A stretch of 64,000 nucleotides of DNA from Eledone cirrhosa. Taxonomy: Eukaryota. A program made the translations under genes and the position numbers. The notes under the pieces are model-generated. The model worked only from the letters and a program-made list of their open reading frames with translations. It did no database searches and was not told the DNA's origin. The stretch covers positions 45,446,001 to 45,510,000 of the forward strand of contig OZ024744.1 of NCBI GenBank assembly GCA_964016885.1, read 5' to 3'. Below are positions 23,679 through 25,549 of the stretch, in pieces; positions within the stretch are counted from its first letter, which is position 1, and each line of letters begins with the position of its first letter.

Positions 23679-24346
23679 GTAAGTTATAATTTGAACATCA
23701 TCTAATAAGTTATTCAATAATTTATCCCTTCTCTCTATATATAAATATATGTGTATATATATATATATATATATATATATATATATATATATATATATAT
23801 ATATATATATATATATATATATGAGTTGAAAAAAAATGAAAACGAAATTTCATTTCTCACTCTTAGTATGGCACTTACTTAACACCGTATGGCATAAATT
23901 CAGGCTGTTCAGTTTGTTTACAAACGAACAAAGCGGCGTTATAATAAGCGTCCGCTAAACTGATGCGTGCATATATGTATGTGTACCTGTATGTATATAT
24001 ATATATATATATATATATATATATATATATATATATATATATATATATATATATATATATATATATATATATATATATATATATATATATATATATATAT
24101 ATATATATGCATGCTACTGTAGGTCTGTATACATATATGTATGTATGTATACATACATACTTACATTTAAGTAAGTGCCATACTAAGAGTGAGAAATGAA
24201 ATTTAGTTTTCATTTTTTTCAGCTTATCGTTTTCGGTATGCCTCACCGATTTAACTCACTCAATATGCAAATTAGGCTGCTCAGCCGTTAATTTTCATAA
24301 GGAAAGTATATACTTTCGAACGTTCAACTATCTGGCAGATGGGTAT

Positions 24347-24389
24347 ACGGTGCTGATGATAGGTAACAAGCTTGAAACTAGTACATCGT
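24347..24389 (+). ncRNA. Minimal type I hammerhead ribozyme motif, copy 1 (stem II damaged)
   Basis: ACGGTG-CTGATGA-tAGGTaacaAGCTt-GAAA-CTAG-TA^-CATCGT; stem I ACGGTG/CATCGT; palindromic stem III ACTAGT. Confidence 0.6.
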
Positions 24390-24830
24390 TCCTGTGTCAG
24401 TGTTGAACAAAAAGGTGACGTGGTTGCATTAACACAGTATGGCATACATTCAGGCTGTTCAGTTTGTTTACAAACGAACAAAGCGGCGTTATAATAAGCG
24501 TCCGCTAAACTGATGCGTGCATATATGTATGTGTACCTGTATGCATATATATATATATATATATATATATATATATATATATATATATATATGCATGCTA
24601 CTGTACGTCTGTATACATATATGTATGTATGTATACATACATACTTACATTTAAGTAAGTGCCATACTAAGAGTGAGAAATGAAATTTAGTTTTCATTTT
24701 TTTCAGCTTATCGTTTTCGGTATGCCTCACCGATTTAACTCACTCAATATGCAAATTAGGCTGCTCAGCCGTTAATTTTCATAAGGAAAGTATATACTTT
24801 CGAACGTTCAACTATCTGGCAGATGGGTAT

Positions 24831-24873
24831 ACGGTGCTGATGATAGCTAACAAGCTTGAAACTAGTACATCGT
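24831..24873 (+). ncRNA. Minimal type I hammerhead ribozyme motif, copy 2
   Basis: ACGGTG-CTGATGA-tAGCTaacaAGCTt-GAAA-CTAG-TA^-CATCGT; GUA triplet, predicted cut after 24867; U-U mismatch at the base of stem II. Confidence 0.7.
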
Positions 24874-25549
24874 TCCTGTGTCAGTGTTGAACAAAAAGGT
24901 GACGTGGTTGCATTAACACAGTATGGCATAAATTCAGGCTGTTCAGTTTGTTTACAAACGAACAAAGCGGCGTTATAATAAGCGTCCGCTAAACTGATGC
25001 GTGCATATATGTATGTGTACCTGTATGCATATATATATATATATATATATATATATATATATATATATATATATGCATGCTACTGTACGTCTGTATACAT
25101 ATATGTATGTACGTATACATACATACTTACATATATATATATATATATATATATATATATATATATATATATATATATATATATATATATATATATATAT
25201 ATATATATATATATATATATATATATATATACATATATATATATATATATATATATATATATATATATATATATATATATATATGTATATATATATATAT
25301 ATATATATATATATATATATATATATATATATATATATATATATATGTAAGTATGTATGTATACGTACATACATATATGTATACAGACGATATGAATACC
25401 CCCTCCGCCTCCGTGGTATTTTCTTTGTGGTTATAAGAGGCTTAGCTCTGTTTCTCGACCGTTATATCGCGTGACTATCTCCCCCTCCGCCTTTTGGGAT
25501 TCTTTCTCACGTCGTGTAGACGCGTTCTTGAGACTAGTAAAATGAGGTA

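Follow-up and report, generated by a model that had tools for sequence, protein, structure and literature searches.

Does an intronic tandem repeat that carries one hammerhead ribozyme per unit represent a mobile element, how did its two ribozymes come to lie next to each other, and would they cut the transcript of the surrounding gene? These questions are raised by a locus within a 64,000-nucleotide stretch of the Eledone cirrhosa contig OZ024744.1, which is referred to here as the window and to whose first letter all positions relate. The locus is embedded in a gene with thirteen mini-exons of 60 nt on the plus strand (23619-46398), all 13 of which show AG/GT ends and open frames. The mini-exons are phase-1, internal exons of two subtypes that encode a repeat rich in proline, serine and threonine, and their number has grown as exons were duplicated together with an adjoining intron; neither the first nor the last exon of the gene was identified in the window. 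The insertion analyzed here is located between the mini-exon at 23619-23678 (plus strand, 60 nt, phase 1, with AG/GT ends and an open frame) and the one at 26082-26141 (plus strand). These two had been called exons 1 and 2 in the original prediction but are internal exons; the accompanying statement that the hammerheads are on the strand of the mini-exons was correct, both copies being encoded on the plus strand.

Structure of the insertion

The introns of the mini-exon gene contain a (TA)n tract that has received LINEs and other insertions. In paralogous introns a short (TA)n tract is followed by ordinary intron sequence, which is picked up again here only at 25926; we thus place the insertion in the (TA)n tract at 23822 to about 25871, beyond position 25389, where the repeat had originally been thought to end. 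The left (TA)n flank (23736-23821) represents the target tract, which is present in paralogous introns without an insertion, and the right (TA)n flank comprises positions 25873-25924.

The tandem unit (unit A of family A) has a period of 484 bases and contains one hammerhead per unit, as described originally. Two full unit bodies of 436 nt each, C1 (24109-24544) and C2 (24593-25028), are arranged head-to-tail on the plus strand, differ at three of 436 places (99.3% alike) and are separated from their surroundings by (TA)n tracts; C1 contains no open reading frame of a known family. From left to right, the insertion starts with an inverted piece (23822-23882, minus strand; unit 59-118), which is linked to the direct part by a shared TTAA (23879-23882), followed by the 5'-truncated copy F0 (23879-23993, plus strand; unit 321-435), a first internal (TA)n tract (23994-24107), C1, a second internal tract (24546-24591) at the apex of a long predicted RNA hairpin, C2, a third internal tract (25030-25073) and the terminal partial copy F3 (25075-25132, plus strand; unit 1-58), with which the direct array ends. 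A long (TA)n tract (25133-25345) forms the right flank of the family-A array. Behind it lies a second inverted piece (25345-25389, minus strand; unit 14-58), which is the same as F3 including the C at unit 38. The region 25075-25389 is thereby a palindrome around a 213-nt TA tract with arms identical over 45 nt. This second inverted piece may go back to a fold-back, to another priming event or to an effect of the assembly.

Unit A has a GC content of 34%, and its longer frames yielded no Pfam match and no coding remnant. No Penelope-type protein was found in the seven long and 107 short frames of the window; the 107 short frames, which lie outside the LINE and Gypsy copies, gave one weak and unrelated Pfam match.

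The hammerhead motif and its conservation in the family

Hammerhead A is present as copy 1 at 24339-24395 and copy 2 at 24823-24879 (both plus strand), with predicted cuts after 24383 and 24867, respectively; the stems, boxes, GUA triplets and cut sites had been recognized correctly. Both copies have a 6-pair helix I with one G.U pair, the boxes CUGAUGA and GAAA, a palindromic ACUAGU helix III and the triplet GUA, and the type I core (C3 U4 G5 A6 N7 G8 A9, G12 A13 A14, A15.1-U16.1, H17) is complete in both. In copy 2, which is intact, helix I consists of five distal pairs, a 3x1 internal loop and six proximal pairs, followed by the core, a U.U mismatch with a 4-pair helix II, the palindromic helix III and GUA. 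Copy 1 shares the extended helix I and has an additional G.G mismatch in helix II (24363), as noted originally. This mismatch was not found among the family variants and is private damage through which a helix II pair was lost; a further base private to copy 1 lies at 24447.

The motif had been termed minimal. However, canonical metazoan hammerheads have a helix I of 6 bp, a helix II of 4 bp and a helix III of 1-2 bp with a small palindromic loop and are active as dimers, whereas the minimal hammerheads of Penelope-like elements have a helix I of 4-5 pairs, an ill-defined loop 1, a helix II of 7-8 pairs, G10.1-C11.1 and little or no helix III (PMC4209133). With a helix I of 6+5 pairs showing covariation, a 4-pair helix II and a palindromic helix III, hammerhead A corresponds to the canonical form, and judged by its sequence it is best classified as a type I hammerhead that is conserved, canonical in size and extended in helix I. 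On structural grounds, its helix III should form in a dimer only, since a monomer would have to close two pairs over a loop of just 2 nt.

For an analysis of the family, the unit between two TA tracts (24600-25025; 426 bases) was used as a probe and compared with four public sequencing runs. In one of these (X1), whose organism (coded A) is likely that of the window (share of query words, 0.72), 3,893 contigs match unit A, a figure that is not a copy number, and the summed depth peaks over 24855-24869; contigs were matched at 80% likeness, which favours conserved stretches. Unit A is a highly repeated family. Nine places vary in the 57-nt ribozyme (24823-24879), namely N7, two loop bases and six helix I bases; among the X1 family contigs there is no variation in the 11 conserved core bases, N17, helix II, the U.U mismatch or helix III, and the chance that the variants spare this 26-base block is 0.002. 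The variants are common, accounting for 46% of X1 depth at N7, 53% in loop 2 and 44% in the helix I internal loop. Two pairs of helix I are altered on both sides (24834/24870, G.U to U.G; 24824/24878, U.G to A-U) and two on one side (24823/24879, A-U to G.U; 24825/24877, G.U to A-U), and pairing is kept in all four. Random placement of the changes preserves the whole fold in only 141-287 of 2,000,000 trials for nine sites and in 1,064-1,999 of 2,000,000 for seven, seven of the nine variants being linked on one contig (X14 record 9). Furthermore, the distal part of helix I was predicted from the window sequence before the variants were examined. A family without the core or without stem covariation had been named as what would speak against the ribozyme; instead, the core is spared and the helix I changes keep pairing. 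Even so, the variants could stem from few independent events. In X1 the change at 24870 accounts for 38% of the depth and that at its partner 24834 for 4%, the latter at a quarter of the depth, and a subfamily with a mismatched helix I may exist, linkage coming from one contig.

Outside the ribozyme, only two of six variants at confidently paired places are compatible with the predicted fold, whereas four break their pairs; structural constraint is thus confined to the ribozyme, and the variants do not bear out a fold of the entire unit. This fold is nevertheless stable in prediction, with z -5.3 against shuffles for the plus strand and z -2.4 for the minus strand (60 shuffles), and with 69% of bases paired in the circular unit.

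Could hammerhead A be a chance or fully decayed look-alike in a satellite or a repeat of non-retro origin? The core boxes alone have two matches in the window, a number that is reached in five of 100 shuffles; the 56-66-nt ribozyme regions fold no better than shuffles (z about 0); and Rfam gave only HH9, with 18.6 bits, far under its gathering score of 52 (E 0.02 for 151 bases, 1.3 for 10 kb), in a weak alignment whose helix I and II lengths equal those of hammerhead A. In the descriptor search, which had been proposed originally, the full descriptor has four matches in 20241-64000 compared to a single one in total over 300 locally shuffled copies, although it was loosened after hammerhead B (see below) had been seen and the two copies of hammerhead A count as one event in the chance estimates. 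With family variation that spares the core and preserves helix I, a look-alike is hardly credible. Matches to miRNA families of Rfam in the window are (TA)n artefacts under the cut-off.

The run search listed no RNA run with the unit; 14 rows from 11 coded organisms and 10 studies contain 0.26-0.72 of the query words. The three runs from other organisms contained no reads (X23), no contigs (X7) or two contigs at depth 4-5 (X14) of unit A; its occurrence in other species is not established, the X14 contigs possibly being carry-over. Two family contigs show strand switches, which are compatible with inverted insertions but could be assembly effects. Family-specific hammerhead patterns had no matches among the genome contigs and viral contigs scanned, and pattern matches in two metagenome and 19 viral sequences were discarded as they bear no real likeness to unit A. 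One metagenome contig (L002, 1711-1758) has hammerhead-like boxes and the same palindromic helix III, with 78% likeness over 50 nt and an imperfect helix I; this motif is probably unrelated to unit A.

Origin of the insertion and of the second hammerhead

We consider it likely that the repeat derives from a single insertion event, and that the inserted element belongs to a highly repeated, non-coding hammerhead retroelement family of the animal non-LTR retrozyme type, which was probably mobilized by a Penelope-like element. In the scenario that we propose, transcripts of tandem copies of the family would cut themselves as double hammerheads via the palindromic helix III, which would result in unit-length RNAs that may be circularized, and family RNAs would be reverse-transcribed at nicked (TA)n tracts. 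Twin priming, where a single RNA is primed from either side of a break (PMC2246262), would then have employed two primers and one longer-than-unit template and would have produced an inverted head of 60 nt (unit 59-118) and a direct part of 1.4 units ending at unit 58, joined at TTAA. The original insert would have held one hammerhead, to which a later duplication between (TA)n tracts added the second; copy 1 would then have lost its helix II pair, and an effect on the host intron, if any, would be incidental.

Unit 321-436 and unit 1-58 are repeated in the direct part, which indicates that the template was longer than one unit. The geometry of the three ends fits twin priming, from which we infer, on the basis of one locus, that family A may use this mechanism. 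Penelope-like elements have been described as inserting into microsatellites in the form of partial tandems with an inverted copy at the 5' side and a short tail (PMC8557442); the inverted head, the partial tandem and the (TA)n site of the insertion fit this description, and the inverted 5' fragment had thus been interpreted appropriately as a mark of Penelope-type integration.

At three places (unit 38, 114 and 328), C1 and C2 have a state in common that is not present in F0, F3 or the inverted head, and at unit 114 and 328 these redundant pieces match 96% and 92% of X1 depth, respectively. In addition, the TA tract that follows C1 measures 46 nt and the one that follows C2 44 nt, as against 114 nt for the first tract. 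The shared states and tract lengths suggest that C1 and C2 stem from a later local duplication; gene conversion between them would leave the same pattern. Our literature search, outside of which were most subscription papers, supplements and Repbase/Dfam, retrieved no description of family A or of retrozymes docking at (TA)n.

Expected cleavage and release of unit-length RNA

When two hammerheads combine into a double one, the catalytic half of either copy acts on the site of the other. At this locus the intact half of copy 2 would be predicted to cut at 24383 and the damaged half of copy 1 at 24867. Any cutting by the locus is therefore expected mainly at 24383, and few circles should come from it. 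Activity as dimers has been described for hammerheads (PMC4209133, PMC6155905). Originally, a 484-nt monomer was proposed to be freed by cleavage at both sites; release from this locus appears doubtful, however, because the broken helix II of copy 1 belongs to the half responsible for 24867 and because a double hammerhead imposed on 24335-24884 is less favourable than the minimum by 8.0 kcal/mol. As monomers, the hammerhead shapes are 2.4 (copy 2) and 5.3 kcal/mol (copy 1) above an inactive minimum; all these energies leave out tertiary contacts. Only one of nine Xenopus retrozyme dimers cleaved in vitro (bioRxiv 10.64898/2026.07.22.740005).

The U.U mismatch in helix II, correctly observed before, had been listed as a weakness of these copies, but it is invariant in the family. 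Moreover, HHR_Amex2 of the axolotl, which also has U.U at the base of helix II, reached 22% cleavage within one hour in monomeric form and a higher value when dimeric (PMC7229834), indicating that this mismatch is no bar to cleavage.

Against this background, it is very unlikely that both hammerheads go back to rolling-circle reverse transcription of a 484-nt circle which is still released from the intron today and alters splicing of the mini-exons. The 99.3% likeness of the head-to-tail copies, their position on the strand of 13 open mini-exons, the intact copy 2 and the tolerance of U.U in HHR_Amex2 (PMC7229834) would agree with such an origin, but the derived states shared by C1 and C2 indicate duplication after insertion, the broken helix II of copy 1 can slip to pair with G12, and the double-hammerhead fold is energetically unfavourable. 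In addition, 12 of the 13 mini-exons have no family-A insertion behind them, and hence the repeat is not a conserved control element; its intronic location is ordinary, considering that 42-44% of Xenopus retrozyme copies are intronic (bioRxiv 10.64898/2026.07.22.740005). Independently of its origin, the locus offers two useful comparisons. The asymmetry of damage probes the double-hammerhead mechanism, with cutting expected at 24383 and little at 24867, and the filled versus empty paralogous introns provide an internal control for an effect of the ribozyme on splicing.

Further hammerheads in the mini-exon gene

The insertion also includes segment B (25390-25871, plus strand), a non-coding insert of another kind within this (TA)n tract, which is absent from the paralogous introns, occurs once in the window and resembles unit A over 23 nt only. 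It contains the predicted hammerhead B (25550-25637, plus strand; predicted cut after 25632) with a 5-pair helix I, a U3-A8 core, a long helix II closed by G-C, a palindromic 3-pair helix III with a tetraloop, and GUC. The hammerhead-shaped fold of this motif exceeds the minimum by 1.1 kcal/mol; hammerhead B could fold as a monomer and may be the likelier cutter in this intron. Hammerhead C (37600-37709, minus strand) belongs to a third element (about 37451-38142) that ends at the (TA)n tract of a paralogous intron; it has a 4-pair helix I, a long branched helix II with A.A at its base, a palindromic helix III and GUC, and its hammerhead shape is 2.2 kcal/mol above the minimum. Both had been overlooked originally. 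Rfam returned no hammerhead family for B and a partial type II match for C (E 0.97), neither at cut-off. The U3-A8 core of hammerhead B is as reported for Cercyon elements, and the short helix I and long helix II of hammerhead C resemble Penelope hammerheads (PMC4209133).

Going further, one could picture a family of microsatellite-docking retrozymes, in which an (AU)n tract of the RNA itself, presented by a long hairpin, and twin priming on a circular or multimeric template would direct insertion into genomic (TA)n. Recombination between the element's own TA tracts would then supply the second hammerhead required for cutting and thereby switch on a silent one-ribozyme insert, and the three unrelated hammerhead elements of the mini-exon gene, among them hammerhead B with its U3-A8 core, encoded on the sense strand and competent as a monomer, would serve as cut sites that influence the selection of exons among the 13. 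We regard this chain of events as a whole as quite improbable.

Relationship to retrozymes and Penelope-like elements

A short tandem repeat that is non-coding, low in GC, apparently without an LTR/PBS/PPT build and part of a repeated family, with a type I hammerhead in consecutive units, corresponds to what is called a retrozyme, and a 5'-truncated partial tandem, an inverted 5' piece and a microsatellite target, here seen at one locus, are as expected for a Penelope derivative. The family variants and the ends of the insertion thus support the original notion that a non-coding tandem unit with Penelope-type ends carries a conserved hammerhead of type I, and family A is likely a new family of animal non-LTR retrozymes and a non-autonomous derivative of Penelope-like elements.

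The animal non-LTR retrozymes described previously (PMC7229834) resemble family A in their non-coding tandem units with GC below 50%, each with a canonical type I hammerhead, and in their weak palindromic helix III; HHR_Amex2 of axolotl is closest in detail, as U.U at the helix II base is common to it and hammerhead A. In contrast to these retrozymes, unit A is slightly longer (484 bp versus 150-450 bp), contains (TA)n internally and is itself inserted into (TA)n, and its helix III loop comprises 2 nt instead of 4 nt; the term "microsatellite" is absent from the main text of that study. In family A, circles and cleavage are predictions. Compared with the Xenopus retrozymes of Li, Clavereau & Pollet (bioRxiv 10.64898/2026.07.22.740005), family A agrees with their definition in having two consecutive type I units, its unit length lies within the 51-972 bp of the Xenopus families, and its locus appears to show local amplification after insertion, as proposed there; a difference is that one of the two motifs at this locus is damaged. 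What family A adds to the animal retrozymes is a junction record, with contiguous ends at unit 58|59, a TTAA join and empty paralogous sites. This record bears on the mode of insertion and on the question of rolling-circle copying versus later duplication, which that preprint leaves open.

With Penelope-like elements the insertion shares the 5'-truncated partial tandem, the inverted 5' piece and the microsatellite target (PMC8557442). Unlike them, it has no frame for a reverse transcriptase or a GIY-YIG domain, and hammerhead A has no G10.1-C11.1 of the minimal Penelope motifs (PMC4209133). This bears on a simpler explanation, according to which unit A is an end repeat (pLTR) that became detached from an autonomous Penelope-like element, giving short truncated inserts of this coding element which expand locally like a minisatellite, with neither a life cycle nor a circular RNA of its own. 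The tandem pair does look locally duplicated, two further Penelope-type hammerheads are present in the same window, and such a route was proposed for Xenopus, where 24 of 57 families are homologous to annotated elements, nearly all of them Penelope-like (bioRxiv 10.64898/2026.07.22.740005). Still, we think this explanation unlikely. Both ends of the insert repeat the sequence that surrounds the internal (TA)n tract, and this sequence can pair with itself across the tract, which calls for a template longer than one 484-nt unit; there is no coding remnant; and a ribozyme of canonical size with an extended helix I is associated with retrozymes rather than with Penelope ends (PMC7229834). Amniote intronic hammerheads such as that of RECK (PMC6155905) are likewise type I motifs within an intron. 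In contrast to these conserved single-copy motifs, hammerhead A is part of a young repeat insertion that is found in only one of 13 paralogous introns.

Other contents of the window

A direct repeat of 309 nt (94% alike) with a spacing of 523 bp at 41510-42341, which ends at a TA tract, was considered as a further hammerhead element and rejected, since no hammerhead was found in it; it is possibly another partial-tandem element. The first third of the window (1-20240) is an approximately 20-kb, strand-biased, C/A-rich satellite of 5-nt words with a period of 20 and higher-order repeats. Two near-perfect, MITE-like hairpin inserts of 225 and about 115 nt are located at 30825-31048 and 33001-33114, the second of which adjoins a TA tract. 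LINE copies of two subfamilies were identified at 20683-23291, 26226-29956, 33725-37451, 44120-45862, 50848-54475 and 59318-62939; according to Pfam they encode an endonuclease, a reverse transcriptase and, behind the latter, a PHD finger, and they have CAT/TGA repeats at their end. For the LINE protein next to the insertion no close named relative was found, the best named ones being about 37% identical. Two copies of LTR-retrotransposon type (46565-50745 and 55102-59286) with pieces of protease, reverse transcriptase, RNase H and integrase are 98% identical to each other and belong to a tandem duplication of about 8.5 kb.
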